IMG/VR virus record: IMGVR_UViG_3300049844_000277
Location: 36,520-100,519 of that record
Strand: one strand, 5' to 3'
DNA length: 64,000 bases
From: a virus
The notes under the pieces are model-generated. The model saw only the letters and a list, made by a program, of their open reading frames with translations. It was not told the DNA's origin and did not search any database. Both the position numbers and the translations under genes were made by a program. This document shows, one piece after another, positions 9,086 through 62,261 of the stretch (position 1 is the stretch's first letter; each line of letters starts with the position of its first letter).

Positions 9086-10885
9086 TTAGTAACGCCCTTC
9101 CGGACCCATCCCAAATTCAGCCCCATAAGCATAGGCGGGTACCGGATGCGTACTGTGTAAATCAGACGCAGCGCCGGTTCGTGCCCCCTGCAGAAGGGAA
9201 TCCTTTAGATATCGGTGAGCCAAGCGCGCCATCCAGTCAGGATGTAGCAGTGGATTACGTGCCATCGGACGCATCAAAAATTCTACCCGAGGTAATGTAG
9301 TGGCGACAGATACTTCCGAAATTTTATGCTCATTCAATTTCTGTATAACTGATGGTGTTAACGGAGTTCCGGCGGTGAAGTGAAGAACTTCTTTACCGAG
9401 TACACCACCCTCCGCCTGCTTCAACGGAACAGATTTACTGTGCCGTGCTGCGGCATCTCTATACGTTGAGTAAGGAATAACCTCGCCCTTTACCAACGTA
9501 GGATGCTCATCAGTATGCTCGAGAACTTTGACGTGGTTGAGGTCCGCGCGGGCAACCAACTCAAGGTGCCGCTTGTCGACATTGAGTCCTTGTCCATGAT
9601 AGATGTCGTGCAATGTGTCCACGAGGTACTGTCGTCCGACACCAAAGCCCTTGTGATGAATGAGCTCGTCTGGTTTCGGAATTCCTTCTGATAAGACATC
9701 CCCCGCCTCTACTTTCTGTCCCACATGAACTAAGATTTTTAAGTTTGGTCCGGCGTAATGTTGTAAAGCATCAACATGCACGTATGTTCCACCGTGCGGA
9801 GCTGGGATTATTTTTGTAATAGTACCTGCGTGCTCTGCTAGCGGTGCTTTATTAATGAAGGTCTGGGGGATTTCCAAAAGCTGACGGATACCAGACATCC
9901 CCTCTAACTTGGGGGATGTACCTTTGAGTAACCGCATACCGTGCTTAGCGCCGAGCGCCATTTGAGTCAACGGTTCGGAGATAGACTGGGCGGCACGGAC
10001 TCCGACGTTAACACCGATAGCGTGCGGACGTCCTCGCTCATCTAGACCCTGGCACTTACGACAGACGCCATCCTTGGTGACGCAGGTCATTGGTGAACGC
10101 ACGTACACTGTACTGACCTTTGCCTGAAGCTTAGACGCCACTTCTTTTGTAACTAAATCATTCCGATGAAATCCAGCCTGGTCTCGAGATAAATAGCGGT
10201 CAACAATATTTCCATCGGAACTATTCATTGCGAGACCGTTATCAGTTCCGCAATCGTCCTGGGTAATAACCAGCGGATACATATTGTTGGTCATCACCTT
10301 AGACATATCGCCAGGCTCTGCGATGGCCGTATAGGTTTGTACGATGTTATGTCGCGCTTCGTTTCCTGCGGCCCAATGGTCAGCAGCGGACAACCCTTCG
10401 GCGTAGGACTTACTGATTAGCCAGGGATTTATCTCCCCTTTGCTTGTCGTAGTCGCAACCGGGGACGCAATGGTTTTCATCAGCTGCGGAATATTGCCGC
10501 GCGCACCCGACAATGCCATCGAGGTCATAGAACCTGGATGCTTTTTGGTGTGCTCAAGCATCTTCTTTTGTACATCTAAAATAATCTTCTCTTTGGCGTC
10601 TCTATTGTCCGCGTTTTTAATTGCGGCGACAGCGGGCTGCATGATGCTGTCGCGTTCTTTGTACTCCGGCGTAATGTCATCCAACCCTACAGAGACACCT
10701 TCAAGCGTAGAGATGTCGTCCCCTAAGGTTTTTAGCTTAGAGACAATTTCTACGTATTCGGCAGGATCTTCCTTGGCCAAGTCCAACATTTTCTGTTGGA
10801 ACTCTTTTTTATTTAGTGTGCCCGTAATGTGATGCTTCCCGGGCAGCAGGCTATTGACCAGAAACCTACCTAACGGCTGAGCCAT
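9086..10885 (-). CDS. rpoC: DNA-directed RNA polymerase beta' subunit, C-terminal module (trigger loop / regions F-H). This is the split second half of beta'.
   Basis: N-terminus [31 protein letters not shown] aligns with E. coli beta' [54 protein letters not shown] matches the AAQSIGEPGTQLTMRTFH motif. [20 protein letters not shown] matches [20 protein letters not shown]. Confidence 0.85.
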   Translation of the reverse strand: [599 protein letters not shown]

Positions 10886-11750: not shown

Positions 11751-12380
11751 TTAAGTACCGGCTCCACGGGAACCTCCTTCACAGAACATCATTCGCCGTA
11801 GGTCATCAGCATGCTGCTGGTCAGTAAGGACCATTTGCTCCAGCATGACCTTAAGCGACAAATTATCTCCGGCCATGTCTGACAGATGTCGTAACTCTTC
11901 AATCAATTGCTTCTCAGTTTGTAGAAGAGTCATGAAAATCTGGTGGAGGTCACTCATGTTCGGGATGACACCTACCTTAGGAATAGGTTCTCCGCCTAAC
12001 GCCGTAATCTTCATTGCGAGATGGTAGGCGTCCATCCGCTCTTCTTTGATGTGCTCTTTAAAGTGGTCGTAGATAACATCTCTAAAGTGCGCACGAATAC
12101 GATCGCCATAATTCATATACATGAAGATGATGGTATATTTGTAGCGCAGCAACTTATTACACTGAGCCACTACCTTATCCTGGGCAACCGCGAAGAATCC
12201 TTCCTCGGCCGATACAGCAAGAGGATGAGCACCAGCAGATGCTGTGGCAAGCGGAGGCATGGCGAACATCTCCTCCGTGTGCGGGGATGACTCCATTGTG
12301 TCCGCCATTGGACTGCTAGGAACTGGAAGACTCGAGCCACTCTCAGCCATGGAAGTACCCACTTTGTAGCGCTGCGTCAT
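11751..12380 (-). CDS. Ferritin-like (bacterioferritin/Dps-fold) four-helix-bundle protein.
   Basis: KEERMDAYHLAMKITALGGEPIP matches the EExxHAD.L.ERI..L.G.P helix-B pattern of bacterioferritin/Dps. C-terminal LEQMVLTDQQHADDL matches the ILESEEEHIDYL pattern of the last helix. Confidence 0.5.
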   Translation of the reverse strand: MTQRYKVGTSMAESGSSLPVPSSPMADTMESSPHTEEMFAMPPLATASAGAHPLAVSAEEGFFAVAQDKVVAQCNKLLRYKYTIIFMYMNYGDRIRAHFRDVIYDHFKEHIKEERMDAYHLAMKITALGGEPIPKVGVIPNMSDLHQIFMTLLQTEKQLIEELRHLSDMAGDNLSLKVMLEQMVLTDQQHADDLRRMMFCEGGSRGAGT

Positions 12381-15300
12381 GTACCCACCTCAACTCGAGT
12401 ATTGAGCGTAATCTCCCCGCGCTTATAGGCGGCGAGAGCTTCTTCTCTATTTTTGAAATGGCGTACTTTATCGTTCGCGGAACTCTCGGCTTTGGACGCC
12501 AAATGTACCCCAAGCATAGCTTCCATTCGTGGCGCTACCATCAAGCTATCTTTTTCACGGTCCGAGAATAGAAGGTTTGAGAGAGTCATCCCCTTCACTT
12601 CATCTATCGCGGGCTTCAGTACGGGAACGTGGATTTGGAATGTGTCCCAAACTACGAGGCCGTCGTTGACCGCGAAAATTTGTGTGTCAGGAACAATAAG
12701 GTCATAGACGGTTTCTTTTCTTAATACCTCGACCGACTCTACTAGATCCCAGGTAATTCCAACGTTCTCAACGATCCTTGCCCAAGCATCGACATCTGGT
12801 GTTTTGGCCGTCCGGAAAAAATGCAACATACGCCGAGCGTTTTGCCTCGTAACGTATGGAGCCTCTTTTCGTTTAGATCGTAGCGTAGCCAATGATGCGC
12901 AGAACGAACTATCTTCCGCGCACGGACCAGTACGGCTGGAGGCGAGGGTCATTAGATTTTTAGGAACAGGAACAATATCCACCTGATCCACAAGTTCATC
13001 AGCTTCTAGGAGGTTCAAAGCCTCCAAAGATTTAGAGTTGTTCCAAATTCCTCTACGAAGCCAGGACACGTTACGCTGGAGGTCTACGGTACTAATAGGT
13101 ATCGTATAAGCTACAGCTTTTTGGAGACGTCCCTCCTTCGGATATGCTTCGCTCACAGAACACCGGACGCCGATAGTTTGTAACAAAAAACGTAATGAAG
13201 CTGCTAACGCAGCAGACGACGTGTGAAGGGCGGCCATCACTTGAAGTTTTGCCTTACCGGCGCTGACAGTGAGTGTACCGTCACCGTTCAACATTCCGAT
13301 GAGCACACCCCACCGAGCCTCCTCAGACCAGTCCCCAAACGCTGGCACGCGTTTCGAGAGACAAGAGCGTCCGGGTACCCTCTCATCTAAGTAACAAGTC
13401 TTGAACAGCTCAACGCACTTCTGCGCACCACTAAAGTGGTCTTTGATACTTTGTCCTGTTATTCCGTTAGATGCGTCGTGTACCTCACGATACGTATTTC
13501 GCTTAATGAGCTTACCCTCAAACGCATTCACCGCGGCAGCAAAGCGTTCACGGTGCACGTCACTAACTTTCGTGTACCCGAAATAATGATCGGTTTCACC
13601 CAGTAAGAAACCGTCGGACAAGAATGCGCCGACCATCCATCCAAACTCAAAATCCCCCTGTGACCCCGTTAACGGTAAATGCCGCACAACCGGAGCTAAC
13701 TTTCCAACGGAATCCGAGGGCGCTGTTGCTTCGATCTGACCTGTTTCATGGTTATAAATACACAACGACTCATTCGTCGACGCCGTAACGCTTAAACCAC
13801 GACGCATTTCTACTTTCGCCACTTCGCATCCGTCTTCAATCGTAAGTCCTGTCACCGGGGACATTACTGATTTACTTGCGGAGTGGTCGTAAGAAAGAAC
13901 GCGAAAACCCTCCGGAACGGCGTAACTGCGAGCACCATTCTTGTCGATACTATAGGGCTCCTCAGCGTGTGGAATCTCTTGAAGCTCCGCTTCCACCAGC
14001 GCCTGTACCGCTGAGGTCCAACAAACACGAGTCTCTGCCGCGAATTTCATGGCTGTCTCCTTGGCTTCATCGCCAAGGAGCGCTTTACAAGCCGCACCTT
14101 CTGCTGTCAACACAACTTTCGTCGAACCCAAGAAACAGTTTCCATCGTAATCCGCATTGAAGCCAAGCTCTGCGAACGGATTTACGCGAATCGTCTTCCC
14201 CGCAACAGGGACGGCGTGAGCGCCAATAAACCCGTACCGGTGGAGAGTCGGAGCGCGATTCACCATCACCGGACGCTCCTTAATCTCCGCCATCAACGCG
14301 TCGTGCGCTGCCGGATGTTTCTTTTCCAACATCTCTTTCGCTTGAATGGCTCCGAAGCCGCGACGGATAAGGCGTGAGATAATAAACTTCCCGTACATGC
14401 CCCAAAGCATGTCTATCGGAATACCTATCTCATCCATGCTCAGAGAGCCGTCTGGAGCTATGGTTCCGCGGCCGGAGATATCTTGCTGCCGCTTCATTAT
14501 TCGTTTTTGGAAAAAGGAACTGTTCCCCGATACGGAAGGTTTACCGTTACGGCGAACAACTACAGTACCATTAGGGACTGTCACACAATACACGGTTCCT
14601 TTGTACGGGTACGCCTCGGTAAAAGAGCCCGACTCAATGGTGACATCAGAAAACCCCCGCACAGAAAAAAGATAATGCGGGAGATGGTGATCCTTAACTG
14701 GCGGACAAATTCCTCTAAAAATAACTTGGTAACCTATTTTTGCAGCGAGATGCTGTAGGTCATCAATTAATTGTAAACTAGCGGTACCGGCGTGAGCACT
14801 CAGCGGTTTACGCCGATAATGGGTTTTCGGGTTTTTCACGTTCTTCGCTAACGAAGGGTGAAGGGTTCCATCTCCACGCAGATATCCGCGCAATAATCCC
14901 TCTAACATAGCAGAAGGCCACGCTAAAATATCTGAAGATAAGTGTTTACTCTCGCACCCACGCCCGCAATGATGCGTTAACCAATCCGCCAGTGAGCGTA
15001 ACCTAATAGTCCACCAGATTACCTGGTATCCATCTTTACGCGTATATGTTTTGCGTACAAAGGGAATATCCAATTTTTTAAAGCACAAATCCACCGCGCG
15101 AACGTGTGGAGACGTTGCGGCTTGACACAAAGAAACCTGGGTTCCTGTTGTGGAAATCCAACCTTCCGCAATCCACCAACCTACAAACTCCGCAAAGGCC
15201 AAAGGATCTGGAGTAAATGTTCCTACTAAATTAGCCGTACGCCGTTTTTTGTTATCCGTAGAAACTTCACACGTATCTCCCGCGAAAACCAACTCCGGAA

Positions 15301-18300
15301 AAGTACCCTCCCACTCCTCAGCGCTAACCATTACCCTCCGGCGGTCCGTGCCTATAAAAGTATCCGCGCGTACCTTTTCCCACGGAGTCCAGACATAGAG
15401 CGCCTTACCGTTACTTACGCGCTTACGGCGATACGAGACTACATGTTCGTGGTTAGGTGTTACACATAAATCAAGTTCACGGCTGCGCGTATGTATCAGA
15501 TCTCCGTCGAACGGCATGGATACTAACGCGGTCGGCTTCTGCCATTCAAATTCCCGGGTGTCTAAGTTAACCGTAGCGACACGAGTTTTTCCGGTGTACT
15601 TAGAAAAACGAACCCACCCTTTTTCTGTAAGAATATCTGTTTGATCATCGTAACATTTTGGCGTAGTTTTCCCGGTAATATGCTCGAGAAATCCCTTTAC
15701 GTTTCTCTTTTGGAGTTTGGGGTTATCTGATTCGTGCGTACCAATCACGGCGCCTACCGCGTGAAACAAGTTCTGACGAAGCTTCGCTTGTTCATCCGGC
15801 GGAAGAATTGGAGATTCAATTTGCTTCCGTAATGACTGATTATGAAGGATAGCGCTTTGGTACAGGTAGTTCGAATCACCTACTACGAGCTCAGAGCCAC
15901 TCTTCCCCGGAAGAATGGGTCGCATTATTGGAGGAAGAACAGGCAACTTGGATAGGACGTACGCATCTCCCGGCTTGAGCTCCTGCCGATTCAGCGCCTC
16001 AAGGAACTTCAACTGCTTTACTGCGTCATCTAGCTTCGTACCGGAGAGCGACTTAATAGAGTTACGGAGCTCCGCGATACGCGCCTTAACGTCGATAGCG
16101 TTAAGCTTTTTCTTTACCGCAGCGCCACCATTCGTATGGTGATACTGGTCAAAATCTTTCGCGGTCATCCCCAGCAAGCGACGGGCAGGGTCGGCGAATA
16201 CAGGATTTACAACGGGCTCGGCGAGCTCAATGTGGCTCCACCGTGTTCCAGTGGTACCGCCAGTAACCGCGGGGTCAAACAATCCCCCACGTTCAGCGGC
16301 CAAATCTTTAGCGCGTACTAACTTCTCATTTTGTACTTCGCCAGATGACATCCGTAGAATGTCTTTATCGGTAAGCGGAGAGAGCGTGCTGATACTTCCA
16401 CGCGAATCAACTTTGACCCCTGCGCCATGCAGCATACCGATGAACTTGTCATAAACGAACGACGACTTGAGTGGAGGGAGAGGCAGTCCCAGCTGAATCG
16501 CCCGCCAGAACTCATCGTTCTTCTGGCTCTTAATAGCCGCCGTCTCTCGAAGCACGTTCCGCGCATTATGTGCAACGAGGGCATTGAACTCCATTTTACC
16601 GACGGCTTTCGCGCCTTCGTCACCGCCCTTAATTGGCTGCTGATTAACGTCGTACGCACCCGTACCGCGCGCGGCGTAGTTGGTCTCCGTGGTCTTAAAC
16701 AAGCGAAGTACGTATTGCGGCCCAACCAGGATTCCCGGAATCTTTTTACCCGACACAGGGTCTATCAGCGTTTCCTTGTCCTTGACCTTGTGCTCCTTCA
16801 GTAAATCCTTTGCCCACTGTACGTTGTCACGCCCTGAAAAGTTTTCAACGACAATAGGTTTACCGATTTTCTTGGCAACCTTAGCGACACACGTCTCTAG
16901 TATTTGCGACGGATTGATTCGGGAAATTACGCCAGCCGAGGTATACAAAACCTCAATCGGCTTACCCGTCTCATCTTGAAGCATCTTGTGATCGGGAACA
17001 ATAAGGGAAACAACGCCCTTGTTTCCGTGGCGTCCTGTGTTTCCGCACCATACTGATTTACCATTTCTGCGAACATACAAAACATGTCCAGGAACAGTTA
17101 CACAGTAAACTGGTGATTTGTACGAATCTACAAAACATTCCACCTGACCCTTCTGTCGTTTGATATGTCCATGATTCACAGTAGGTGTTAATTTCGAATT
17201 AATAATTCGTACCTGCCAATAATCACGACACCAAAAATCTTTACCTTTGATTGTTTGATACCCTTCAGCTTTCGCTAACGACACATTAGCAGCTTTACCA
17301 ATATGTAGTGCGAGACGCTGAACATCATCCGCCAAACGTTTGGATGTTGTTTTGTAGCATATCGGTTGGCCATTTTTAGTATGACCGTCACCCCACATCA
17401 ACCAGTTGAATAGCGTCTCTTGATCCGCTCGAGACCAAGCGAACACCTCAAGCGGGATAAATTTCTCGTAAGACTTACCGAACTGTTTAAAGTACTGCCA
17501 ATATTGCTTGGAATGAATACGAACCTTATCACCTGTGTCCGTGAATAAAATCCCTTCCTCACGAAGAAACTTTTCTAACTGTTTTCGATTTGGCTGATTA
17601 ATTTGCGTAATCTCTATGCCGTAAGTACCGGATTCTTCAATCGTAATGAGATTACCTTCAGATAAAAACGCACCGAGAAGAGCGGCTAAGGTTTTAGTCG
17701 GAAGCGCTTTATCATCTAAAACACGTAAACCCCGGCCCCCTTGTCCCGCGCGCACAGTTATCGAGTCAAATACAAACGACTCAGGAGAGTGCCCCACCCA
17801 AATCCCATCCTTCTTATAACTGACCCTTTTTCCTGCGATTTCATACGCCGGTAAAAGTTGGAAAGATTTCTCGTTGCGCGGTTGAACGTACATATGATGT
17901 CCGTCGGTCACAAACAAATCTACCTGTTGTGATTCGATGCGGTACATCCGTCCGCCTTCTGGATACGAATGAATTGCGTCGGGCTCTAGGTACTCGATAT
18001 TTTCGCCATTCTGTAACGTACAAATCTTATCCGTAATACGTACATCCGCTATCGGTTTCCACCCTTCCCACGTGAGAACCTCAGTCTCTGCATCATAACA
18101 GAGCTTGTCTCCGACGCGCATCGGCTCACGGGTCTTAACCGTTACAACGACACGCTTGTCCGTCACATAAACATCCATGACTTCACCTTCGAAGTCGTGG
18201 TCCCACGTACGAACAAGTTCCCGATACGGCGTAACTAACGTCTTCTTTAGGTTACCGAGAAGCGCATCAGACGCCGAAAGTTTACCTCGTGTGACTCCAG

Positions 18301-28836: not shown

Positions 28837-29439
28837 ATGTACTGTGCTACATGTAATACTGACTTACCAGAATCCGCGTTCGGAGATAGAGCAGAAACAG
28901 CCTCTGGAAAACGATATTATTGTCGAAAATGCGGAACCAAGAAAAACGTACACTGGCGAAAAAAGAAAGCGGCAGAAGGTTTCTGCTATTCATGCGGTAA
29001 GCGAAAACCTCTTAAAAATAAAACACGGTGTAGGCGTTGCATAGCAATAGCGAAAAAAAGATATCTTGAGAAAACACCTGAAATGCACGCGGAAGCGAAC
29101 CTGAAACAACGAACCAGGTTGGCCGCATTAAAACGGGAAGTTTACGCCGCGTACGGCGGTTATCGCTGCGCCTGTTGTGGTGAAAAACACGAAGAATTCT
29201 TGAGTATTGATCACATAGAAGGAAACGGTAAGCAGCACCGGAAGGAAGTAGGCAGTGGGGGACGCGGTAGTGCGTTGTACAGGTGGCTAAAGAAAAATAA
29301 TTTTCCACCGGGGTTCCAGATTCTGTGCATGAACTGTAACTTTGCGATAGGACACTACGAATCGTGCCCACACAACCCCACGGTAAAAAGAGTAGTTAAA
29401 CGCAGAAGAACCAGGGAACACACATGGCCATCAAGATGA
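28837..29439 (+). CDS. HNH endonuclease.
   Basis: CACCGEKHEEFLSIDHIEGNG ... LCMNCNFAIGHYESCPH (H-N-H with Zn-binding Cys pairs). N-terminal CxxC/CxxC zinc ribbon. Confidence 0.75.
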   Translation: MYCATCNTDLPESAFGDRAETASGKRYYCRKCGTKKNVHWRKKKAAEGFCYSCGKRKPLKNKTRCRRCIAIAKKRYLEKTPEMHAEANLKQRTRLAALKREVYAAYGGYRCACCGEKHEEFLSIDHIEGNGKQHRKEVGSGGRGSALYRWLKKNNFPPGFQILCMNCNFAIGHYESCPHNPTVKRVVKRRRTREHTWPSR

Positions 29440-30275: not shown

Positions 30276-31250
30276 ATGGCTGCCGCCGAAAAACCTGTAT
30301 TGCCTACGTGGACCAAACCGAACCTCGTGACTATTGAACCAACACCGAGGAACCCTCCGAAGCTCATTGAACTCGCGGTCAAGGATATCCTCACGAAAGC
30401 GGGAGACAATATCCGAACAGGAGAACTTCCCGATATTGAAGAGCTTGCCAAGAGTATCAAAGCCGAAGGATTGCTAGAACCAATCATCGTTACTGCCGCA
30501 GAGACGCCGGGAAAGTACTCGGTGATTGCAGGGCACCGCCGACTGACCGCCGTTCGAAGCTTGGGCGAAGAATCTGTCCCTGCGTTGGTAGTAGATGCGG
30601 ATAGCAATCGACGCATCAAGCTAGCGCTCATCGAAAACATCCAACGAAAGGACATGGCTCCGTTGGATAAAGCGAAGGCGTTCGCGAAGCTCATCAAAAA
30701 TACAGGGCTGGAGCAGCAGCAAGTGGCTCAGGCTATCGGAGTTGCCCCAGGATACGTCTCACAATATTTGACTCTCCTCGCGCTACCGGAATCAGCTATC
30801 TCTGCGCTTCGAGATGAAACGCTTTCATTCACACAAGCGCGAGTTCTTTGCCGACTACTTCCGCACATAAAAGAAATCGACGCCCTAGTACTCGAAGCCT
30901 CCAACCTTACCGCTGCCGCGATGGAGACAAAGGTTGCGCATATCCTTGGGACGCTCAAAGCATCGAAAGCTGAAGCTGAAGCTGAAGCCGATGCTGAAGA
31001 TGATAAGGTAAACCCTGAGGATGCGGACGGACGTCCGAAGAAGAAGAGAGTAGCTAAGACCGTGGTACCCGATAAAGCAGTCGAGTATTACGCCGAAGCG
31101 GACTTCCATCCGCTCAAGAAAGAAGACATTCGGGAACTGATGGTCAGCTACAAGCGAAAAGAAGTAAACGCTGAGAGCGAGAAAAAGAGAGAAGAGTATC
31201 GCCTGATTCTCAAGGGAATCACGTTAGCAGCGGATCTTCGTCTTAAGTGA
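30276..31250 (+). CDS. parB: ParB/Spo0J-like nuclease-domain DNA-binding protein.
   Basis: PIIVTAAETPGKYSVIAGHRRLTAVRSLG (ParB box GxRRxxA). ALIENIQRKDMAPLDKAKAF plus the HTH GLEQQQVAQAIGVAPGYVSQYL. Confidence 0.8.
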   Translation: MAAAEKPVLPTWTKPNLVTIEPTPRNPPKLIELAVKDILTKAGDNIRTGELPDIEELAKSIKAEGLLEPIIVTAAETPGKYSVIAGHRRLTAVRSLGEESVPALVVDADSNRRIKLALIENIQRKDMAPLDKAKAFAKLIKNTGLEQQQVAQAIGVAPGYVSQYLTLLALPESAISALRDETLSFTQARVLCRLLPHIKEIDALVLEASNLTAAAMETKVAHILGTLKASKAEAEAEADAEDDKVNPEDADGRPKKKRVAKTVVPDKAVEYYAEADFHPLKKEDIRELMVSYKRKEVNAESEKKREEYRLILKGITLAADLRLK

Positions 31251-31259
31251 AGAGATTCA

Positions 31260-32093
31260 CTACTCAAGAAAAACATCTTGAGACGTTTCTACTTGATTTG
31301 CCAATAAGTATGTCTTGATTTGCGCGAGAGTGTCCTTCTTAATCTGCCGGACACGTTCAGAAGATAAATCTACTCTTCTGGAAATCTGCCGGAGATTTTT
31401 AGGCTCTTCTCTCGCGCCGTAATACGCCAGGACAATATATTTATCTCGTTCGCGTAGAGATAAGTTATCTAACGCACGACGTAACATAGTAAGGCCGTAC
31501 GTATTCACTAAATCACGTTCTAAGCTCACATCGCAGTGTCCAGCTACGTCAATAGCGCCAACAGCATCCAACGTAACGTGCGGCTGCTCTACATCAACAC
31601 CGCCACCACTCTTACGTTGCGCTCTTAACGCTTTCTGCTTATGGGCAGGGACACGAATAATTCCTTGACTATCTAACTCCTCTAGTATTTTCTCGCGAAC
31701 CCACCACGCAGCGTATGTAAGAAACTTAGTATTGCGTGAGGTATCAAAACGATCCGCCGCGACTAGAAGTCCTACGTTACCGGCGGATATCAGTGACGTC
31801 AATAGTTCGTTGTCGAACTTTGGTCCCTTAGTGCGATAAGCATATTCTTTCGCTACTTTCACAACAAAGCGAAGGGCTCCCGAAATAAGTCGATCACGCG
31901 CTTTAAAGTTTCGCGGAGTATTACACCTAGGACATCGGGTAGCTGAAGATCCCAAGCTATACGAAGACCTGCACGCAGAACAAGTGCGGTAGGCCTTTAC
32001 TAGATCGCGTTCCTCTCGTTGAGGAATGAATTCATTACCACGTAAATCAGCGAAATAAGCCGAGACTACACGGTCATTGTCCATTGGGTTCAT
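31260..32093 (-). CDS. Sigma-70-family RNA polymerase sigma factor with an N-terminal zinc-ribbon insertion. Antisense to the surrounding plus-strand module.
   Basis: - Region 2.1/2.2: ARDRLISGALRFVVKVAKEY.
- Region 2.3/2.4: FLTYAAWWVREKILEEL.
- Region 4.2 HTH: ISRRVDLSSERVRQIKKDTLAQIK.
- Insert: CSACRSSYSLGSSATRCPRCNTP. Confidence 0.8.
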   Translation of the reverse strand: MNPMDNDRVVSAYFADLRGNEFIPQREERDLVKAYRTCSACRSSYSLGSSATRCPRCNTPRNFKARDRLISGALRFVVKVAKEYAYRTKGPKFDNELLTSLISAGNVGLLVAADRFDTSRNTKFLTYAAWWVREKILEELDSQGIIRVPAHKQKALRAQRKSGGGVDVEQPHVTLDAVGAIDVAGHCDVSLERDLVNTYGLTMLRRALDNLSLRERDKYIVLAYYGAREEPKNLRQISRRVDLSSERVRQIKKDTLAQIKTYLLANQVETSQDVFLE

Positions 32094-32206
32094 TTTTAAA
32101 CGATCCTCGTTTTAGTGCTGGAAATAGTCAGAAGCTGGGAGTAAGGTGCCCGAGCAATCAACGCAACGAAACCAACAACTAATCCACAAATCAAGAAAGC
32201 ATAACA

Positions 32207-33250
32207 ATGGCTAAGAACAAAGACGTGACCCCCGCCGCGGAACCGGCCGTAATCGTTAATCCGCCGAACGCGACTTCCGCTATCGTCAAAACTGAAGAAA
32301 GCGGGTCTTCGGAGTTCGCTGCGCGCAAAGCTTTGGCCATGCGACTACCCGAAGCCATTCGACCTCGGGCCATGATGTTGAAGCGTCCTACGCCGAATGA
32401 GCTCATGGAGATTGTCATGAACCTTCCTGAGAATAGCCAGGAAGCGATGATGACTCTGGTGGCCAAGACTAACCCAGAGAAGCAGGGGTTGCACACCTCG
32501 TCTAGCGGCTTCGAGCCAACCGCGTTGAAGGTTTACCACGGTACCGGTAACGACCCCATTAGACCCCGACAAACGCTCCCAGGTCAATTCTACTCCGCGG
32601 ACTCTCGGGTTATCGGTGAGAAGTTCAACGCCGTTCCTCTGGCAATCTATGAGGGACACATCCTATGGCCAGAGAAGACCAAGGATTCCAACGAGAGTAA
32701 AGCACCTATCTGCGTTTCAGTCGACCGTAGGATGGGGAGCAAATACGGAAACTGCGACGCTTGTCCGCTTCACCCAAACCTTCGTCCGTATGCGCAGGGT
32801 GGGTGCATGCGAGAAATAACTGTGTACCTCCTCGACCAAGACATGACGTCCATCTACGAGCTCAAGTTCAGTAAGACGAGCGAGGGTGCCGGTAAGGCGC
32901 TCATGGGTGTCATGAAGAAGTCCAACTTCCTCTGGGAGCGCTGGTTTACCTTCGAGGCGAAGGAGCGAGTCGACAAGGGTAACAAGTGGTACATCATTCA
33001 GTCTAGTCCTGTTGCCGATGCTACAAAGGCAATCACGGATACGAAGTTCCATCCGCTATTCAACGCGCTCTCAAAGGTCATTGACGCGGACATCTACTAC
33101 ACGCAGATGGCGAACATCTATGACCGCGCTCGTAACAGTCCTGACTCGAGTGAATCGGTGGTAAACGCCACCCCGGTCGTAGCGTTCGATGAGAAGGCGT
33201 TTCTGAAGAGCGATACCGACGCCGTCCCGGATTACTCCAAGAACGTCTAA
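32207..33250 (+). CDS. Hypothetical protein (347 aa).
   Basis: Long ORF. Cys cluster CVSVDRRMGSKYGNCDACPLHPNLRPYAQGGC. No family recognised. Confidence 0.55.
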   Translation: MAKNKDVTPAAEPAVIVNPPNATSAIVKTEESGSSEFAARKALAMRLPEAIRPRAMMLKRPTPNELMEIVMNLPENSQEAMMTLVAKTNPEKQGLHTSSSGFEPTALKVYHGTGNDPIRPRQTLPGQFYSADSRVIGEKFNAVPLAIYEGHILWPEKTKDSNESKAPICVSVDRRMGSKYGNCDACPLHPNLRPYAQGGCMREITVYLLDQDMTSIYELKFSKTSEGAGKALMGVMKKSNFLWERWFTFEAKERVDKGNKWYIIQSSPVADATKAITDTKFHPLFNALSKVIDADIYYTQMANIYDRARNSPDSSESVVNATPVVAFDEKAFLKSDTDAVPDYSKNV

Positions 33251-34143: not shown

Positions 34144-37100
34144 GTGCCCACAACCCGAGGAGCTCTCATGGAGAAGCCCGCAGAAATCTGCAGCGGATGT
34201 CCTCGAGAAATCGAGACAGAGACCCATCCCTACGGTTATGTTGAATCGTGGATTGATTCAAACGCCGAACTCATCATCATAGCGGAAGCTCCTGTCTGCG
34301 ATCGCCACGGTAACGTTCCTAGCTCTTTCGACGATGACAGCGGTAAAATCATTCGAACCGCCGTATCCGAGCTACGTAACTTACCTTCGCACAGTAAGCT
34401 AGCGGTCTCGTATACGTACGCAGTACTCTGTACAAGCAACCAGGGCGACAAAGACCCCGAAAAAGCCGTACTGCAACGGTGCCGTACGCTGCTCCAAGCT
34501 GACTTACGTCGCGCAAACAAGAACGCCGTCCTGCTGGTAATGGGTATGTCTGCCCTTCGCGCACTAGAAATAAAAGCCGCGAAGTTGAAGGACATGCAGG
34601 GGCGATTACTCCAAAAGCAGAAAATTGGAGAAGGTGATGACGCTCCGATATTCGATGTCGTCGTAACCGTCTCGACAAAACAGTTGTTCGCGATGCCGGG
34701 AATCTACACGACGTTCGTAGCGGACCTGCGACGAGCTGCGGACGCTGCGAGCGCAGGTGGATTAACACACGTTACCCCACTCGAAAAACTAACCGAAAAA
34801 TACGTAATCCCGAAAACAATCGAAGAAGTACGCCAAATCTGTCGCGAAATACTGAATTATCAAGAAGGTAAAGTATCTGCAGATAACTGGCCTATCTCTG
34901 TAGACACCGAGACAAACACCAAGTTTCCACACCGAGAAAACTTGAAAGTATTGGCGGTGTCCTTCGCATGGGCGGAGGGTAAAGCTACTGCAATTCCATT
35001 AGAGCACCCCACTACACCCTACGCGTACCAAGACGCGATACCGTACGTACGCGAAGTCTTAGCGAGCAAGAAGCCGAAGTTCCTTCATAATGCTAAGTTC
35101 GACCTTAAAGTCTTCATGAAAGCGGGCTGGCCGATTAACGGGTTCGCTTGGGATAGCATGCTAGGGGAACATGCTCTCGAAGAAGATAAAAAGGGACAGT
35201 ACGGATTAAAGCAGTTGACCCGTACTTTCTTCCCGGAATTCGCGACATACGCCGACTCTCTTCAAGAAATGCTCACGCACGAAGAGGGCGACTCGCAGCT
35301 CGACAACCTGAGGAAAGCGCCAAAAGCTTCAACTTCGAAAGATGGGGGATTTGAAAGTATCCCACTTCCCACGCTATTGCTTTATGCGGCAGTCGATGCA
35401 GATATGACACGGCGGCTAGTGTTACTGCAGGAAAAAAGAATTACCGACGAGCAGAACAGAGTAATCGTAGAAACGAATATAACGAAGAGAGAGCAGGCGC
35501 TGGCGATTTCGGCGAGGAAGAAAATACGGCTGAGAATTGCGCCGCTACATAGTGAGACGGAGATGTTGAAGAAGTACATGGTGCTCTACCCCGTCCCAGA
35601 ACTCTGTTCCGCTGATAAGCCGGTAAGACAACTAGTACTGAACAACGTATTCCCCGTTACCCCAGCTCTCGCGAGAATGGAGTTTAAGGGCATACGGATA
35701 GACAGACCGTACCTAACTACGTTGCGTGAAGCGTTGGGAAAAGTCGTCACAGAAACCGCTGCAGAGCTACAGGATATGGCGGGCAGAGAGATAACTCTCA
35801 ATAGTCCGGCAGAGATAGCTGAAATCCTGTTCAACAGCGGGTTTATACATCCAACAACTCACGCCCCCACGACTTATCCCCTCACAGGCATCGGTAAGAC
35901 AAAAACGGGACAGATACAAACCACCGAGAAAGTGATGCAGTACTTGGTGGCGAAGTATCAGTGCCCCTTTGCAGCTAAAAAACTAATCTACGCCAAGGCA
36001 TATAAAGCGAAAAATACGTTCTGTCAGAATGTGTGGGATCTCTCGGAGCTCGACGGGTATCTACACACGAACTACAACCAGCACGGCACAAATTCGGGTA
36101 GACTGTCCTGTGTCGCGGGAGAAACCGTACTAGATACTAATTACGGAAAAATCGAGATACAGAATCTCGATCTGGAGAAGATGCCGGGGATTACCATCCA
36201 GACCCACGAACTCCGCGAACAACCGATTCTACGTAAAATAGAAAAAGGCATTGAAGAAATGTTCGAGGTCGAACTCGAAGACGGGCGCACCATCACCGTG
36301 ACTAAAAAACATCGCTTCTTGACGCCGACGGGGTGGAAACGACTCGAGGAACTGTCAGAAAATGCCGAAATACTCTGCGCCGCCTCCGTGGGTAGTGGAC
36401 CAAATATGCGACTCGTTACAACCCGGATAAAAAGCATACGTCCCGTAGGTCCTAAGAAAGTCTGGGACCTCACAGTAGCGGTCGATCACTCTTACATCGC
36501 CCACGGATTTGTTAACAAAAATTCCAACGATGAAAACATGCAAAACATCCCCAAGAAATTGGCGGGTGTTAACATTAAGAAAGTGTTCCTCCCGGACGAT
36601 GATTCGTATGTCTTCGTCAACGCTGATGCGAAGGGTGCCGAAGTACGAATCCTAACCGCCTACTGCCGAGACCAAGCGCTCATACAATCGCTCAACGCGG
36701 GGCAGGACACGCATTGTTTCATCGCGTCCAAGATTGTTGAAATCGTACGTCAGAGTCCTGGTGCAACGGCGGTTCTCGGAAGCATGAATCTAAGCGATGA
36801 GTATCCTCTGACGTACGAAGACTTCGCGGCTAGAGACAAGCTAAAAGAAACCAATAGTAAGTACGGGGCGATGCTCGACAAATTCAGAACCGCTGTCAAA
36901 CGCGTAGTGTTCGGTATTCTGTACGGCGCCGGTCCTCAGAAAATTGCGGAAACTATTGGTATCAGTCTAGAGCAAGCACAACAGCTCATTCACACTCTGT
37001 TCGCTTTGTTTCCGTCCATCAAGACGTACATGGCGCAGACAAAGTGGGAACTACAACAATTTAATTTAGTCGAAACGTTCTTCGGTAGACGCCGTAGATT

Positions 37101-37527
37101 TAGTGTATCGGGAGCGCCGAAGTATCAAATAGGGAGAGCTGAACGTCAGACAGTTAATTTTAAAATCCAAAGCACAAGCTCTGATATCGTAATGGGACGA
37201 TTACTAGCAATCGAAGAACCTCTCAAAGATTTGGGAGGTAGACTTCTATTGACAGTGCACGACAGCCTTGGGTTTCAAATCAAGAAAAAATATATCCGAC
37301 AGCTACCTGATTTCATTTATACGTATTTGGAGAAGGGTGCAGCAGACGCCCATCCATGGCTCCCAGTCGCATTTAAATGGGACTACGAAGTTGGGTCATC
37401 ATACGGCGAACTCAAATCACTGGAATCCTACCTTGCCAACACGAAAATAGAGGAATACTCGAACGATGCCTACGTCGCCGAGGCTTTCACAGAAGAAGAC
37501 GCAAGAACCTCCCTCTCCGAACCCTGA
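34144..37527 (+). CDS. polA: Family A DNA polymerase (Pol I-like) with a 3'-5' exonuclease domain, interrupted by a mini-intein.
   Basis: - Exo I: ISVDTETN.
- Exo III: YAAVDADMTRRL.
- Pre-motif A GRLS//SNDENMQNIP matches GRLSSSDPNLQNIP.
- Motif A: FVNADAKGAEVRIL.
- Motif B: RTAVKRVVFGILYGAG.
- Motif C: LLTVHDS. Confidence 0.9.
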   Translation: MPTTRGALMEKPAEICSGCPREIETETHPYGYVESWIDSNAELIIIAEAPVCDRHGNVPSSFDDDSGKIIRTAVSELRNLPSHSKLAVSYTYAVLCTSNQGDKDPEKAVLQRCRTLLQADLRRANKNAVLLVMGMSALRALEIKAAKLKDMQGRLLQKQKIGEGDDAPIFDVVVTVSTKQLFAMPGIYTTFVADLRRAADAASAGGLTHVTPLEKLTEKYVIPKTIEEVRQICREILNYQEGKVSADNWPISVDTETNTKFPHRENLKVLAVSFAWAEGKATAIPLEHPTTPYAYQDAIPYVREVLASKKPKFLHNAKFDLKVFMKAGWPINGFAWDSMLGEHALEEDKKGQYGLKQLTRTFFPEFATYADSLQEMLTHEEGDSQLDNLRKAPKASTSKDGGFESIPLPTLLLYAAVDADMTRRLVLLQEKRITDEQNRVIVETNITKREQALAISARKKIRLRIAPLHSETEMLKKYMVLYPVPELCSADKPVRQLVLNNVFPVTPALARMEFKGIRIDRPYLTTLREALGKVVTETAAELQDMAGREITLNSPAEIAEILFNSGFIHPTTHAPTTYPLTGIGKTKTGQIQTTEKVMQYLVAKYQCPFAAKKLIYAKAYKAKNTFCQNVWDLSELDGYLHTNYNQHGTNSGRLSCVAGETVLDTNYGKIEIQNLDLEKMPGITIQTHELREQPILRKIEKGIEEMFEVELEDGRTITVTKKHRFLTPTGWKRLEELSENAEILCAASVGSGPNMRLVTTRIKSIRPVGPKKVWDLTVAVDHSYIAHGFVNKNSNDENMQNIPKKLAGVNIKKVFLPDDDSYVFVNADAKGAEVRILTAYCRDQALIQSLNAGQDTHCFIASKIVEIVRQSPGATAVLGSMNLSDEYPLTYEDFAARDKLKETNSKYGAMLDKFRTAVKRVVFGILYGAGPQKIAETIGISLEQAQQLIHTLFALFPSIKTYMAQTKWELQQFNLVETFFGRRRRFSVSGAPKYQIGRAERQTVNFKIQSTSSDIVMGRLLAIEEPLKDLGGRLLLTVHDSLGFQIKKKYIRQLPDFIYTYLEKGAADAHPWLPVAFKWDYEVGSSYGELKSLESYLANTKIEEYSNDAYVAEAFTEEDARTSLSEP
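36109..36522 (+). mobile_element. Intein 5: mini-intein (138 aa, no endonuclease domain) in the DNA polymerase.
   Basis: - Starts CVAGETVLDTNYGKIEI.
- Ends VWDLTVAVDHSYIAHGFVNKN with +1 Ser.
- Boundaries codon-verified (tgt at 36109 = Cys; aat at 36520-36522 = Asn). Confidence 0.8.
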
Positions 37528-38793: not shown

Positions 38794-40398
38794 TTACGCG
38801 TAGAATTTCAGGTCATTAGACACAAGCTTATGTGCAAACCATCCGAACAGTTGTGCATGAAGACAATCGTCAGGTAATTGGGGACTGTGTCGCCAAACCT
38901 TTTTACCTGACGACGTAACTTCTTCATAGACGTTCAGAATATCTTTAATCGCTTCACGTGATTCTTCTCGTGGCGGATATACAACCGAACCCCGCTTCAG
39001 AAACATGAGATAGTTATCAATCATCGTCGTGCGGTCAGCGAGATACCTGTCCAAGCCATTGTGCTTTATCGGCTGACCTAACGCTCCGTACTGCATCATG
39101 TGCACGCGGTGAGCGCCTAGACGGTCTCGTAGCGTCGCATTAGGTAGTGCGCCTTCGCCAGCGTCACCGATGACCATCGCAACAGCGTAATGCTGGCAAA
39201 TCGCAGCGATATTCTCGACATCTGCGACGGCGTTGCTTCCTGGGTAAATTCGGAAGTAGAGCGTACGTAACTTCTGTGTTGCGGGATGAAAGCCCCACAC
39301 CCATAGGACCGTACGGCTAACGCCCGTCGTTCCGCCGCCCGACCAATCAACGCCGGCAACAGTAATCGAACAGCCTTCCAAATTTTTACCTGGCGTAGGG
39401 GATATCTGGGGGCCTGTGCACAGTGCTTCGAGCTCCTCCAGTGAAATAAGTCTACGACCTACGGCATCTGATACACCCAAGACCTCATTGCGGAACTTAG
39501 CCGCGGAAAACATGTCATGGTCACGGAGGATATCATCCCAACGCGCCTGAGCGTCCTCGACTGCACTCGGCTTTTCGGGCGTATTTTTTACACACGACGG
39601 GATGTTCAGCGGCATAATCAATTGAGAAATGTGAAAGCCTTTAATGGAGTGTTTTCCAGTACCCTTGTCGGCAATACGCATATCGATCCACTGCCCTGCG
39701 CGGGGATTTAAAACCTTCCCACAATTAAGACAAATGGGGCCGTGTTTACCGAGAGACTTCTCACTAATAACGAAGTTGTATTTACTACACCCCTCGCACT
39801 TCATCACCCATTCGCTCTGAGAAGACTGATCCCACAAAAATTGAATGGAGTTCTCCATAGTTTTCGGAGTTCCGGCGTAAGTTTCGAACCGGTACGCGGA
39901 ATTCTTCATACACGCCAAAATTACGGGAATGACACTGTCGTATAATACGTCCTGTACTTCGTCAAACAAACAACGGTCAGCGGAAAAACCACGCGCACGA
40001 TCCGCGTCATCGGTCGCGTACGTGAACCCGTTCTCTGACCCGTTCGTATACGACCGATGTAATACGCGATCCGCGTGATCTGGAGATAAGAAGTATTTCT
40101 TAATCAACGGCGAATACGACAATGTTTTACCAACACGCGTGTTAGAGAACAAGAGAGTTTGCTCGCGTGAAGGACTGGAATAGTAACTCTTGAAAAATGG
40201 GCGAGAAACAGATTCAGATATAATAAAGTTAGCCAGAGATGTGCTTTTACTGACCTGACGCGCAGTCATCAGAAGCGTCGATTTATAACCTCCGTCATAT
40301 ATCGATTTGAAAAATGGATAGTCTGTAAGACTAAAGGGAGCGCCGTCTAGCCATAATAGACGCTCAGCCACTTCCGAAAGACGTTTACTTCCAATCAC
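38794..40398 (-). CDS. terL: Terminase large subunit (ATPase + nuclease).
   Basis: - Walker A-like: TARQVSKSTSL.
- Walker B: RCLFDEVQDV.
- C-terminal RNase-H-like nuclease region: VAGVDWSGGGT.
- Overall 534-aa architecture typical of TerL. Confidence 0.8.
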   Translation of the reverse strand: MIGSKRLSEVAERLLWLDGAPFSLTDYPFFKSIYDGGYKSTLLMTARQVSKSTSLANFIISESVSRPFFKSYYSSPSREQTLLFSNTRVGKTLSYSPLIKKYFLSPDHADRVLHRSYTNGSENGFTYATDDADRARGFSADRCLFDEVQDVLYDSVIPVILACMKNSAYRFETYAGTPKTMENSIQFLWDQSSQSEWVMKCEGCSKYNFVISEKSLGKHGPICLNCGKVLNPRAGQWIDMRIADKGTGKHSIKGFHISQLIMPLNIPSCVKNTPEKPSAVEDAQARWDDILRDHDMFSAAKFRNEVLGVSDAVGRRLISLEELEALCTGPQISPTPGKNLEGCSITVAGVDWSGGGTTGVSRTVLWVWGFHPATQKLRTLYFRIYPGSNAVADVENIAAICQHYAVAMVIGDAGEGALPNATLRDRLGAHRVHMMQYGALGQPIKHNGLDRYLADRTTMIDNYLMFLKRGSVVYPPREESREAIKDILNVYEEVTSSGKKVWRHSPQLPDDCLHAQLFGWFAHKLVSNDLKFYA

Positions 40399-56040: not shown

Positions 56041-56084
56041 CCCCCCTATGGCACCAGAATTGCTTGTGCGGTCAAAATCGAACT

Positions 56085-61396: not shown

Positions 61397-61542
61397 TTCT
61401 TAGTTTAGTTCATTTTGAGTAGGCTTAATTCCTTGGCGACTGTTACGGAATATCCTGAAATTCTTGTCCGGTACCCGCGACGTTGACAACTTCATGCCGC
61501 TGCCCGGTTAGGTTTGTGATGGATAGTCGTACCATGTAGAGA

Positions 61543-61554
61543 GTATAGCTATAC
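61543..61554. promoter_or_regulatory. Perfect 12-bp palindrome GTATAGCTATAC, 7 nt upstream of the 61562 ATG. It also contains a TATACT -10-like hexamer.
   Basis: Seen directly in the divergent intergenic region 61397..61561. Confidence 0.35.
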
Positions 61555-61561
61555 TCCCTCC

Positions 61562-62122: not shown

Positions 62123-62183
62123 TAGTCTCGACTTCACTAAACCGTCTGCTTCACCAGCGCGGTAGACCTTGGGGTTTAGTGAA

Positions 62184-62256: not shown

Positions 62257-62261
62257 AGATG

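Follow-up and report, generated by a model that had tools for sequence, protein, structure and literature searches.

A sigma-70-family factor with a Cys4 insertion in tailed phages that encode a bacterial-type RNA polymerase

Which RNA polymerase does a phage sigma factor serve when its phage also encodes beta and beta' of its own, and what does a cysteine ribbon contribute where it is set into such a factor? Both questions are raised by one gene of the window, by which we mean the whole stretch of DNA that was analysed (64,000 nucleotides, or 64 kb), and within which it is the only sigma gene (n=1).

The sigma gene and its regions

31260..32093, minus strand: sigma gene, 277 aa plus stop codon, ATG start (ORF list, Pfam, TIGR02937)
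30276..31250, plus strand: ParB-like gene, convergent neighbour (Pfam ParB_N and HTH_ParB; PHROGs ParB families)
32207..33250, plus strand: 347-aa OB-fold gene, divergent neighbour, with 4 invariant Cys, resembling phiC31 gp3 and SSBs
32094..32206, no strand: divergent intergenic region of 113 nt between the sigma gene and the OB-fold gene

As the first-pass annotation had described, parB is convergent with the sigma gene, 32207..33250 is divergent across the 113-nt gap, and the sigma gene runs antisense inside a replication block. The spacing to parB is 9 nt, and the block comprises a SNF2 helicase, two PD-(D/E)XK nucleases, an HNH endonuclease, ParB, the OB-fold protein and PolA. The product of 32207..33250 is a DNA-metabolism protein and no transcription partner; its OB fold and its likeness to phiC31 gp3 and SSBs rule out an RNAP alpha-like subunit or an anti-sigma. 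JGI names homologs of the sigma factor 'RNA polymerase primary sigma factor'. In public data the identical protein (P0042, 200 aa) is called from an internal start codon, which cuts off region 1.2 and the ribbon, and the corrected start is an annotation fix that restores both.

Membership in the sigma-70 family, already proposed from the first reading together with a profile search as its check, is borne out by both region models above their Pfam gathering cut-offs, Sigma70_r2 (PF04542) with 36.5 bits against 24 at aa 74-143 and Sigma70_r4 (PF04545) with 36.2 against 24.1 at aa 212-260, and by the NCBIfam whole-protein superfamily model TIGR02937 (70.5 bits against 42.9, aa 65-263). Furthermore, PHROG 351 'RNA polymerase sigma factor' was matched with E = 1e-27, all top Foldseek matches in the PDB were sigmaA, sigmaS or sigma32 chains, phage-encoded sigma factors were the best fold matches in BFVD, and more than 120 full-length metagenomic homologs were found. 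The protein is very probably a genuine sigma factor with a structural Cys4 insertion. Outside this insertion it is laid out as follows.

31986..32078, minus strand: region 1.2, aa ~6-36, DRVVSAYFADLRGNEFIPQREERDLVKAYR, with invariant Y13, E28 and Y35 (hhalign against RpoS)
31665..31910, minus strand: regions 2.1-2.4, aa 62-143, with 'ISAGN' and the melting residues Y127/W130/W131 (Pfam Sigma70_r2)
31461..31664, minus strand: region 3.0 helix IRVPAHKQKALRA, then a low-confidence linker; no sigma3 domain
31263..31460, minus strand: region 4, aa 212-260, HTH '...LSSERVRQIKKD...', and a conserved C-terminal tail (...DVFxE) (Pfam Sigma70_r4, alignments)

The N-terminal segment is region 1.2, as the family profile aligns to residues 46-80 of E. 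coli RpoS (hhalign probability 99.4%); no match of the Pfam r1_2 model was reported on the sigma protein. Regions 2.1-2.4 and 4.2 are as recognisable as previously stated, by Pfam above cut-off and by alignment with RpoS: PDB alignments to RpoS, SigB and SigA begin at aa 64-65, Y127/W130/W131 match the conserved Y and WW in region 2.3 of RpoS (we take them to be sigma70 Y430/W433/W434), and 'SERVRQIK' in region 4 aligns to 'TRERVRQIQ' of RpoS. Of region 3, only the 3.0 helix and a disordered linker remain (AlphaFold2 pLDDT <50 for aa 163-187), a stretch ~30 residues shorter than in RpoS by hhalign, and Pfam Sigma70_r3 found no match on the protein.

Assignment to group 1 (RpoD) was rejected both on score (TIGR02393, 76 vs 354 bits, with other RpoD models far below cut-off) and on layout, as no residues precede region 1.2, so that there is no region 1.1, and Sigma70_r3 is unmatched. 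RpoS or group 2 was likewise rejected (TIGR02394, 94 vs 378.7 bits; region 1.2 present, region 3 short by ~30 aa), and region 1.2 together with the 3.0 helix 'IRVPAHKQK' excludes an ECF (group 4) factor. The best PDB matches, in sequence and in fold, are the cores of RpoS, mycobacterial SigB and sigmaA (group 2/3), with which the phage protein has in common region 1.2, regions 2.1-2.4 with Y/WW, the 3.0 helix, the 4.2 HTH and an RpoS-like C-terminal tail. However, it shares only about 30% identity with them, scores far below every equivalog cut-off, and differs in its Cys4 at 1.2/2.1, its lack of a sigma3 domain, an Ala for Glu at the position of sigma70 E407, and in being phage-encoded. Among annotated phage genomes (INPHARED), the best match reached only 24-31% identity.

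31911..31985, minus strand: Cys4 zinc-ribbon insertion, aa 37-61, T-C38xxC41-N12-C54xxC57-xxP-R61, at the sigmaNCR position

The CxxC...CPRC motif noted earlier is read straight from the sequence as T-C38-SA-C41...C54-PR-C57, and its placement between an N-terminal segment and region 2.1 stands, with the refinement, from hhalign against RpoS, that this segment is region 1.2. The ribbon has no counterpart in RpoS and is inserted exactly at the 1.2/2.1 junction; with region 1.2 in front of it, it stands where the non-conserved region (sigmaNCR) of sigma70 would be. Across 38 sequences of 46-85% identity, C38, C41, C54, C57 and R61 do not vary, and the 12 loop residues between the Cys pairs show 8-12 residue types per column. 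AlphaFold2 assigns pLDDT 90-94 across aa 31-70, with isolated beta bridges at residues 37, 44, 53 and 60. Because Pfam zinc-ribbon models score below threshold only (DZR, 14.4 vs 27.3 bits, E = 0.044; Zn_ribbon_4, 9.9 bits, cut-off 30.3), the label 'zinc ribbon' rests on motif, conservation and model. What replaces sigmaNCR is a ~21-residue Cys4 segment, conserved and confidently modelled.

The phage lineage and its promoter-like elements

12377..20887, minus strand: fused beta and N-terminal beta' RNAP gene, 2836 aa with inteins, the proposed sigma partner
9086..10885, minus strand: C-terminal beta' gene, 599 aa (Pfam RNA_pol_Rpb1_5, E = 7.6e-19)

The beta-beta' fusion carries the Pfam domains Rpb2_6, Rpb2_3, Rpb1_1, Rpb1_2, InPase, LAGLIDADG_3 and Intein_splicing, and an intein-free relative of it measures 1604 aa. 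A Pfam search found no alpha or omega beside the RNAP genes; a 209-aa gene near them is ferritin-like. With a large terminase at 38794-40398 (PHROG 675, E = 2e-41), the window combines a tailed-phage hallmark gene with cellular-type Rpb2/Rpb1 domains, the features by which mReC phages are defined. The latter are metagenomic, tailed, up to ~190 kb, and encode beta and beta' (Weinheimer & Aylward 2020, PMC7481178), and in being tailed, metagenomic and equipped with beta and beta' the present lineage is like them. It appears to overlap the published mReC clade, and a contig of the mReC supplement (179.6 kb) comes from the same IMG sample, 3300014204, as a relative with a single-ribbon sigma (L015, 179.3 kb). 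The main text of that paper (PMC7481178) does not mention a sigma factor, and the supplement text holds no sigma-factor annotation.

Across ~51 loci from IMG/VR, JGI and NCBI, the gene order is a block of the form PolA - PD-(D/E)XK - OB-fold gene <-> sigma ... SNF2 <-> p1003 ... beta-beta'. The beta' loci were collected with an alignment query, as a single-sequence query gave only 3 close relatives. Sigma lies 6.5-9.3 kb upstream of beta-beta', on the same strand, in 45 of the 51 loci having 10 kb upstream, and three of the six loci missing it are contigs known to carry it slightly further away. Orthologous sigmas in the lineage differ in their ribbons: some have a single one, others a tandem pair, others one placed in the 2.2/2.3 loop, and others lack any; the ribbon-less ones form large sub-lineages of the same phages, so that the ribbon appears dispensable for sigma function with the phage polymerase. 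Among GTDB representatives, we found no cellular sigma homolog above 35% identity, none with a ribbon, and no prophage copies, and the best 80 cellular matches have neither a ribbon nor Ala at the E407 position.

32141..32149, minus strand: conserved block GCACCTTAC (relatives GACCCTAC / GCTACCC; alignment A5 and more distant relatives)
32101..32120, minus strand: conserved leader/Shine-Dalgarno block CAGCACTAAAACGAGGATCG upstream of the sigma ATG (alignment A5)
20894..20901, minus strand: CTATACTT element, 6 nt before the beta-beta' ATG, conserved across the lineage
20911-20924, minus strand: second element TATACT/GATACCAA near the beta-beta' gene
25410..25416, minus strand: CTATACT, 35 nt before the start of gene 22363-25374
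61542..61555, no strand: back-to-back palindrome of AGTATAG and CTATACT between the divergent genes 60980-61396 and 61562-62122

The expectation that the 113-bp gap holds promoters for both flanking genes was not confirmed, as it contains conserved blocks only and no sigma70-consensus site (0 sites vs 1.3 expected in a consensus scan of 30900-32500). These blocks within 32094..32206 are conserved across 5 relatives (alignment A5), and GCACCTTAC, ~50-55 nt upstream of the sigma ATG, is a candidate promoter element. A -35/-10 pair shared among genes, suggested as a further check, did not emerge either: CTATACT occurs without a shared -35. As the promoter recognised by sigma, CTATACT was rejected, since it is not enriched window-wide (7 vs 4.4 expected). 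In the homologous loci of the window's own family, 9 of 18 occurrences fall in the non-coding 10% (P about 3e-5), a positional bias that is absent in the two-ribbon, type-C and ribbon-less groups. Moreover, this only conserved promoter-like element found would drive the RNAP gene itself, so the host enzyme could read it.

The polymerase that the factor serves

15668..15958, minus strand: beta' clamp-helix region, fusion aa 1644-1740, with E. coli R275/R278/R281 = H/S/K

Sigma70 E407 and beta' R275 are documented positions of the sigma-core interface (PMC3326312). At the former, within 'ISAGN' of region 2.2, 50 of 51 syntenic sigmas have Ala, whereas Glu is found in 76 of the 77 best cellular matches and Glu or Asp in 15 of 19 unrelated phage sigmas. 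On the beta' side, with the clamp helix assigned by BLASTP against an E. coli beta' segment and the numbering anchored on NADFDGD, Arg at the R275 position is absent in 72 lineage members (His/Ala/Ile/Val there). As read from the aligned sequences, the canonical contact between sigma 2.2 and the beta' clamp helix is altered on both sides, E407 to Ala and R275 to His. Strict covariation of the two equivalent positions was not found; a few sigmas of the lineage have Glu or Gln in place of the Ala (L056, L133, L145, L151, L152, L155), and the beta' opposite them is non-Arg wherever readable (L145, L151, L152, L155).

Such changes on both sides of the interface favour pairing with the phage polymerase, short of proof. 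The first-pass presumption that the factor partners the element's own RNAP is also favoured by synteny and co-occurrence, and we consider the phage core the likelier partner. The protein is probably an initiation factor of the sigma-70 family, specific to its lineage, in a tailed phage with a bacterial-type RNA polymerase of its own. Region 1.2 and a complete, melting-competent region 2 are present, as is the 3.0 helix, joined by a flexible linker to region 4. The factor would most likely bind the phage core via region 2.2 and the clamp helices and via region 4 and the flap, and would then direct this core to phage promoters.

Alternatively, the factor might redirect the host core to phage promoters while the phage polymerase uses another specificity factor or none, which we regard as rather unlikely. 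Retargeting of the host core is familiar from T4 gp55, from SPO1 gp28 and from the sigmas that jumbo phages without a polymerase encode; the Y/WW melting residues and the E, R, R and Q of region 4.2 are canonical, as this reading would have it, and the conserved CTATACT before the polymerase gene must be read prior to any phage polymerase. Many polymerase-less phages encode sigmas that hijack the host core. Phage sigmas of such a kind are common (PMC7824862), and phiKZ/AR9-type polymerases function without sigma-70-family factors (PMC7824862). However, nearly all sigmas of the lineage, and hardly any cellular ones, have Ala for Glu at E407, a change that should weaken their hold on a canonical clamp helix; the clamp helix of the phage lacks the matching Arg; and in a lineage that its polymerase defines, sigma belongs to the core syntenic genes.

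Known phage factors differ from the present one. T4 gp55-type, Bacillus phage SigF/G-like, cyanophage and jumbo-phage 'group 2' sigmas are also phage-encoded and of the sigma-70 family, but the phages of host-retargeting sigmas are without a polymerase of their own (PMC7824862), and the host-retargeting sigmas compared here (L051-L077) have no ribbon and mostly retain Glu at the E407 position. Conversely, phiKZ nvRNAP gp68 and AR9 gp226 have the same proposed role, as specificity factors for a phage-encoded multisubunit polymerase, but are not recognisable by sequence as sigma-70 family (PMC7824862), whereas the factor described here passes Pfam r2 and r4.

The role of the ribbon and what the factor means for the phages

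In E. coli sigma70, sigmaNCR is a large, mostly helical domain of about 245 aa. Its insertion point between 1.2 and 2.1 is identical to that of the phage ribbon, but it has no sequence relationship with the ~21-aa Cys4 knuckle. The E. coli domain touches the DNA immediately upstream of -10 and assists opening (bioRxiv 10.1101/256826). The Cys4 segment may bind one Zn ion and act as a rigid staple joining helix 1.2 to helix 2.1, and we tentatively assign the ribbon a structural function or a contact with DNA or the clamp; its hypervariable loop argues against sequence-specific DNA reading. More speculatively, sigma domain 2 could have acquired zinc ribbons independently in two places, as one ribbon or a tandem pair at the 1.2/2.1 junction and within the 2.2/2.3 loop, to serve as a lineage-private anchor to core or DNA that compensates for the lost clamp-helix contact, an idea we consider improbable as it stands. 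If true, the anchor would resemble, by functional convergence, the zinc ribbon with which TFB/TFIIB docks on the polymerase. Archaeal TFB and eukaryotic TFIIB are initiation factors with an N-terminal Cys4 ribbon beside a polymerase-binding part. They nevertheless belong to another protein family and carry the ribbon at another position; the likeness is by analogy only.

The ribbon could instead be a regulatory module, for which we see little likelihood: either a switch responding to redox state or zinc, or the place where a regulator or anti-sigma from phage or host docks. Its variable surface around an invariant metal site would fit a co-evolving protein-protein interface. Gains, duplication and second-site placement of ribbons are seen across sub-lineages, and zinc-thiolate switches are a known means of sigma regulation, as in ZAS anti-sigmas. 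However, no partner was identified, the constant divergent neighbour being an OB-fold DNA-metabolism protein and no anti-sigma, and the sigma protein has no HxxxCxxC motif. That the cysteines are metal-free, the segment merely a variable linker and the ribbon a coincidence of motif, as the sub-threshold scores of the Pfam zinc-ribbon models might suggest, is highly improbable given four of four Cys invariant over 38 sequences down to 46% identity with variable columns between, a CxxC...CxxC unit recurring in duplicate and at a second site in relatives, and a pLDDT of about 90.

While the sigma-70 family is already familiar, what is apparently new is a Cys4 ribbon replacing the usual variable insert. 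A literature search for a zinc ribbon in sigma region 1.2/NCR, or for a catalogued sigma with an inserted ribbon, found none, and ribbons at two places in the sigma domain of related phages are apparently undescribed so far. The family, with ribbons that are single, doubled, moved or missing at or around the place of sigmaNCR, provides a natural experiment on the poorly understood function of sigmaNCR. To our knowledge, no recognisable sigma is in use with the phage multisubunit polymerases of phiKZ, AR9 and crAss-like phages. Phages with cellular-type beta and beta' and a canonical syntenic sigma thus make promoter recognition by a phage polymerase testable via a recognisable factor. Co-inherited with the polymerase, sigma also offers a further marker with which the claimed 'deeply branching' or ancient status of the mReC polymerase can be tested, and its typically bacterial regions 1.2, 2.x and 4.2 point to a bacterial-type apparatus. 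If the ribbons are indeed an anchor that makes up for the lost clamp-helix contact, these phages would carry a complete, self-contained and reconstitutable bacterial-type initiation system.

A sigma-70-family protein with a Cys4 insertion

The ATG-initiated gene at 31260..32093 (-) encodes a 277-aa protein that the first-pass annotation had assigned to the sigma-70 family, proposing alignment to the region HMMs as the check. The assignment held, as the protein exceeds the cut-offs of Pfam Sigma70_r2 (36.5 bits against 24, aa 74-143), Sigma70_r4 (36.2 against 24.1, aa 212-260) and TIGR02937, the NCBIfam sigma-70 superfamily model (70.5 against 42.9 bits). It falls far below every NCBIfam equivalog model for RpoS, RpoD, RpoH, SigK and FliA, and it matches PHROG 351 'RNA polymerase sigma factor' (E = 1e-27). 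The closest PDB sequences are RpoS, SigB and SigA, with alignments beginning at residue 64/65, and the top fold matches of its AlphaFold2 model are exclusively sigmaA, sigmaS or sigma32 chains.

Using the E. coli RpoS sequence as an anatomical ruler against a profile of 38 family members, hhalign (probability 99.4%) gave the following layout:

Residues ~5-36: region 1.2, corresponding to RpoS 46-80
Residues 37-58: insertion without counterpart in RpoS
From about residue 62 on: region 2.1

Compared with RpoS, region 3 is truncated by about 30 residues, and region 4.2 (SSERVRQIK versus TRERVRQIQ in RpoS) and the C-terminal tail are alignable. By alignment, the melting residues Y127, W130 and W131 are preserved. 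The AlphaFold2 model (mean pLDDT 78) is disordered at residues 163-187 and lacks the sigma3 three-helix domain, and Pfam Sigma70_r3 likewise found no match.

The sequence reads T-C38-S-A-C41 ... C54-P-R-C57, in agreement with the CxxC...CPRC ribbon previously noted before region 2.1, and the N-terminal segment preceding it can now be identified as region 1.2. Given this layout, the ribbon lies exactly at the 1.2/2.1 junction, the place that in E. coli sigma70 is occupied by the non-conserved region (sigmaNCR). Screening 5.8 billion proteins retrieved more than 120 full-length relatives (46-85% identity), all metagenomic, several of them on contigs of 168-190 kb. Aligning 38 of these showed C38, C41, C54, C57 and R61 to be invariant, and each of the 12 columns separating the knuckles to hold 8-12 residue types; judged from sequence, invariant cysteines around a variable loop are the hallmark of a structural metal site whose surface is unconstrained or co-evolving. 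The ribbon zone (residues 31-70) is modelled confidently, with pLDDT block means of 90-94. Pfam zinc-ribbon models gave sub-threshold matches only, and we infer metal binding.

The orthologous sigmas of the syntenic lineage display four architectures.

Ribbon architectures in the lineage
A (the window's family): single Cys4 ribbon, located at the 1.2/2.1 junction
B (315-353 aa): tandem pair of Cys4 ribbons, located at the 1.2/2.1 junction
C: Cys4 ribbon within the loop joining regions 2.2 and 2.3; '...DRYRPWVIKCRRCGK...QRCNDCN...TTRFLTYAAWW'
D: ribbon absent; includes a large sub-lineage with 'IAAGNLGLLKA'

Most architecture B sigmas (e.g. L019, L024, L040) carry an extra Cys cluster after region 3.0. 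In the architecture C sub-lineage (L033, L039, L043, L045-L047 and L049, with sigma ORFs near position 10001), the loop ribbon replaces the junction ribbon. Occurring single, tandem, relocated or not at all, the ribbon is therefore an accessory of sigma domain 2, gained, duplicated or relocated, and dispensable for sigma function in this lineage.

Genomic setting and linkage to the phage polymerase

The window is a segment of a tailed-phage genome, as assigned from its large terminase, and also encodes a primase, a helicase, PolA, an SNF2 helicase and two PD-(D/E)XK nucleases. The genes most relevant here are:

38794-40398: large terminase (TerL)
12377-20887 (-): beta-beta' fusion (beta plus N-terminal half of beta'), a 2836-aa ORF including intein/LAGLIDADG segments
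9086-10885 (-): C-terminal beta', a separate gene of 599 aa
30276..31250 (+): ParB, convergent with the sigma gene, 9 nt apart
32207..33250 (+): 347-aa gene, divergent from the sigma gene across a 113-nt gap

Both neighbour orientations are thus as first described. The 347-aa gene is kept across the lineage with four invariant Cys, and since 5 of 32 orthologs match Pfam Pam3_Gp34, its product is a DNA-metabolism protein; this supports the replication-module context of the sigma gene and argues against an anti-sigma factor or RNAP subunit.

An IMG/VR pattern-plus-tblastn scan with the sigma alignment yielded 71 loci, to which six were added by encoding-contig look-ups. Fifty-one loci of this set share the block TerL ... 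PolA - PD-(D/E)XK - 347-aa gene <-> sigma - (ParB) ... PD-(D/E)XK - SNF2 <-> p1003 ... beta-beta', p1003 being the gene at 22363-25374 (-), with sigma identity down to 28-35%. Reciprocally, the beta-beta' N-terminus retrieved 192 relatives; where the full 10 kb upstream were present, a same-strand sigma lay 6.5-9.3 kb upstream of beta-beta' in 45 of 51 loci, and three of the other six are contigs known to have it slightly farther away. The sigma is hence linked to the phage beta-beta' polymerase throughout the lineage. A 190-kb relative has the fusion without intein (1604 aa) in unchanged gene order.

Among annotated phage genomes no close homolog was found (top match 24-31% identity). The best cellular matches are ordinary sigmas (<=35% identity, aligned from region 2.1 on), and none of the best matches in 185,579 species-representative cellular genomes carries the ribbon. 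The dataset of mReC, metagenomic tailed phages encoding beta and beta', lists a contig from the same IMG sample as our relative L015 and of almost its length (179.6 against 179.3 kb); its main text makes no mention of a sigma factor, nor does the supplement text searched carry a sigma-factor annotation (Weinheimer & Aylward 2020, PMC7481178). Two public calls on JGI contigs L003 and L004 start at internal codons: P0042 (200 aa), identical to the sigma, thereby loses region 1.2 and the ribbon, and P0271 (281 aa) is identical to the 347-aa neighbour protein.

Several further features accompany these genes. Three essential-looking genes, beta-beta' (2836 versus 1604 aa in a close relative), p1003 (1003 versus 576 aa) and PolA at 34144-37527 (+) (1127 versus 971 aa), far exceed their orthologs in length and bear Hint or LAGLIDADG signatures, which means that the 64 kb should hold at least 3-4 inteins; these inteins and the HNH/endonuclease VII-type genes inside the replication block suggest that homing elements have colonised this DNA heavily. 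Within the fusion, the beta part contains a PF18823 'InPase' (inorganic pyrophosphatase) domain (aa 590-709), kept in relatives. Others are:

28837-29439 (+) and 44252-45946 (+): the HNH/endonuclease VII-type genes
11751-12380 (-): ferritin-like 209-aa gene; 4-nt overlap with the beta-beta' gene, at the latter's 3' end
47331-48467 (+): 378-aa protein, PHROG 2825 'polymerase' (E = 3e-32), with a weak reverse-transcriptase PHROG match
55796-56042: at least 7 copies of a 9-13-nt 'CTGAATA(C/T)CC' repeat in both orientations, in a 335-nt gene-free stretch, reminiscent of iterons, parS sites or operators, and a possible origin or ParB site
62183-62257 (-): tRNA-Asn(GTT), overlapping the listed ORF 62116-62463 (+), so that this ORF is unlikely to be a real gene

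Candidate promoter elements

Promoters for both genes had been expected in the 113-bp divergent gap; it contains no sigma70-consensus site, and comparison of the window with four close relatives (more distant ones being compared separately) found conserved blocks.

32101-32120: leader/SD block, sigma side, conserved in close relatives
32141-32149: GCACCTTAC, the window form of conserved block GACCCTAC, sigma side

On the other side, relatives conserve a GGAGTAC Shine-Dalgarno, which the window lacks. In the window's family, the start codon of beta-beta' is preceded at 6-8 nt by a different element, CTATACT(T), which distant members keep there too, plus a distal T(T/G)ATACCAA. Four of the window's five YTATACTY octamers are intergenic. 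Three of these sit no more than 6 nt from a start on their own strand; the fourth is 144 nt upstream of gene 60980-61396 and, with the copy preceding gene 61562, makes up the palindrome in the first line below. The second line gives one more copy:

61542-61555: perfect back-to-back palindrome AGTATAG|CTATACT between divergent genes 60980-61396 and 61562, each half with a TATACT -10-like element targeting one gene
35 nt before gene 22363-25374: gCTATACTg

In the window's family, 9 of 18 CTATACT copies fall in the 10% non-coding sequence (P about 3e-5, the loci being homologous and not independent); other sub-lineages show no such positional bias. By its position, the element drives the polymerase gene itself, and it may be a host-read early, an autoregulatory or a packaged-enzyme-read promoter.

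Which polymerase the sigma serves

Phages commonly hijack the host core through a sigma, and we found no alpha or omega homolog beside the RNAP genes; both points count against partnership with the phage core. We nevertheless lean towards the phage core as the putative partner, on indirect evidence from gene order and from both sides of the interface. The lineage is defined by its polymerase, and the sigma belongs to its core syntenic genes. Published work places sigma70 E407 (region 2.2) and R275 of the beta' coiled-coil at the sigma-core interface (PMC3326312). The E407 position is Ala in 50 of 51 syntenic sigmas ('[SAQ]AGN'), Glu in 76 of 77 best cellular matches, and Glu or Asp in 15 of 19 unrelated phage sigmas. 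In the phage beta', the clamp-helix segment is still recognisable (aa 1644-1740) and has H/S/K at the R275/R278/R281 positions, in an alignment to an E. coli segment with numbering anchored on NADFDGD. None of 72 lineage members has Arg at the R275 position: the residue is His in the single-ribbon family, Ile/Val/Thr/Leu in the two-ribbon family and mostly Ala in the remainder, the majority ribbon-less. The region 2.2/clamp-helix pair is altered, and since the canonical contact has been modified on the sigma and the beta' side alike, the sequences suggest a private sigma-core interface. The two positions do not strictly covary, as a few Glu/Gln lineage sigmas face a non-Arg beta'.

For the ribbon we propose that one Zn ion would stiffen the short stretch joining helix 1.2 to helix 2.1, and that the surface ribbon would contact the phage beta' clamp and/or promoter DNA immediately upstream of -10; R157 within the sigmaNCR of sigma70 makes such a DNA contact (10.1101/256826). 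Because the loop is hypervariable, backbone or protein contacts would be expected, not base reading. The holoenzyme of sigma and phage core would then transcribe phage genes.

Sigma factors in phages are ordinary. Less ordinary, and not found described in the searchable literature, are three features of these phages: a canonical sigma among the core genes of a lineage that encodes a polymerase, the replacement of sigmaNCR by a zinc ribbon, and the coexistence of single, tandem, relocated and absent ribbons inside one lineage.
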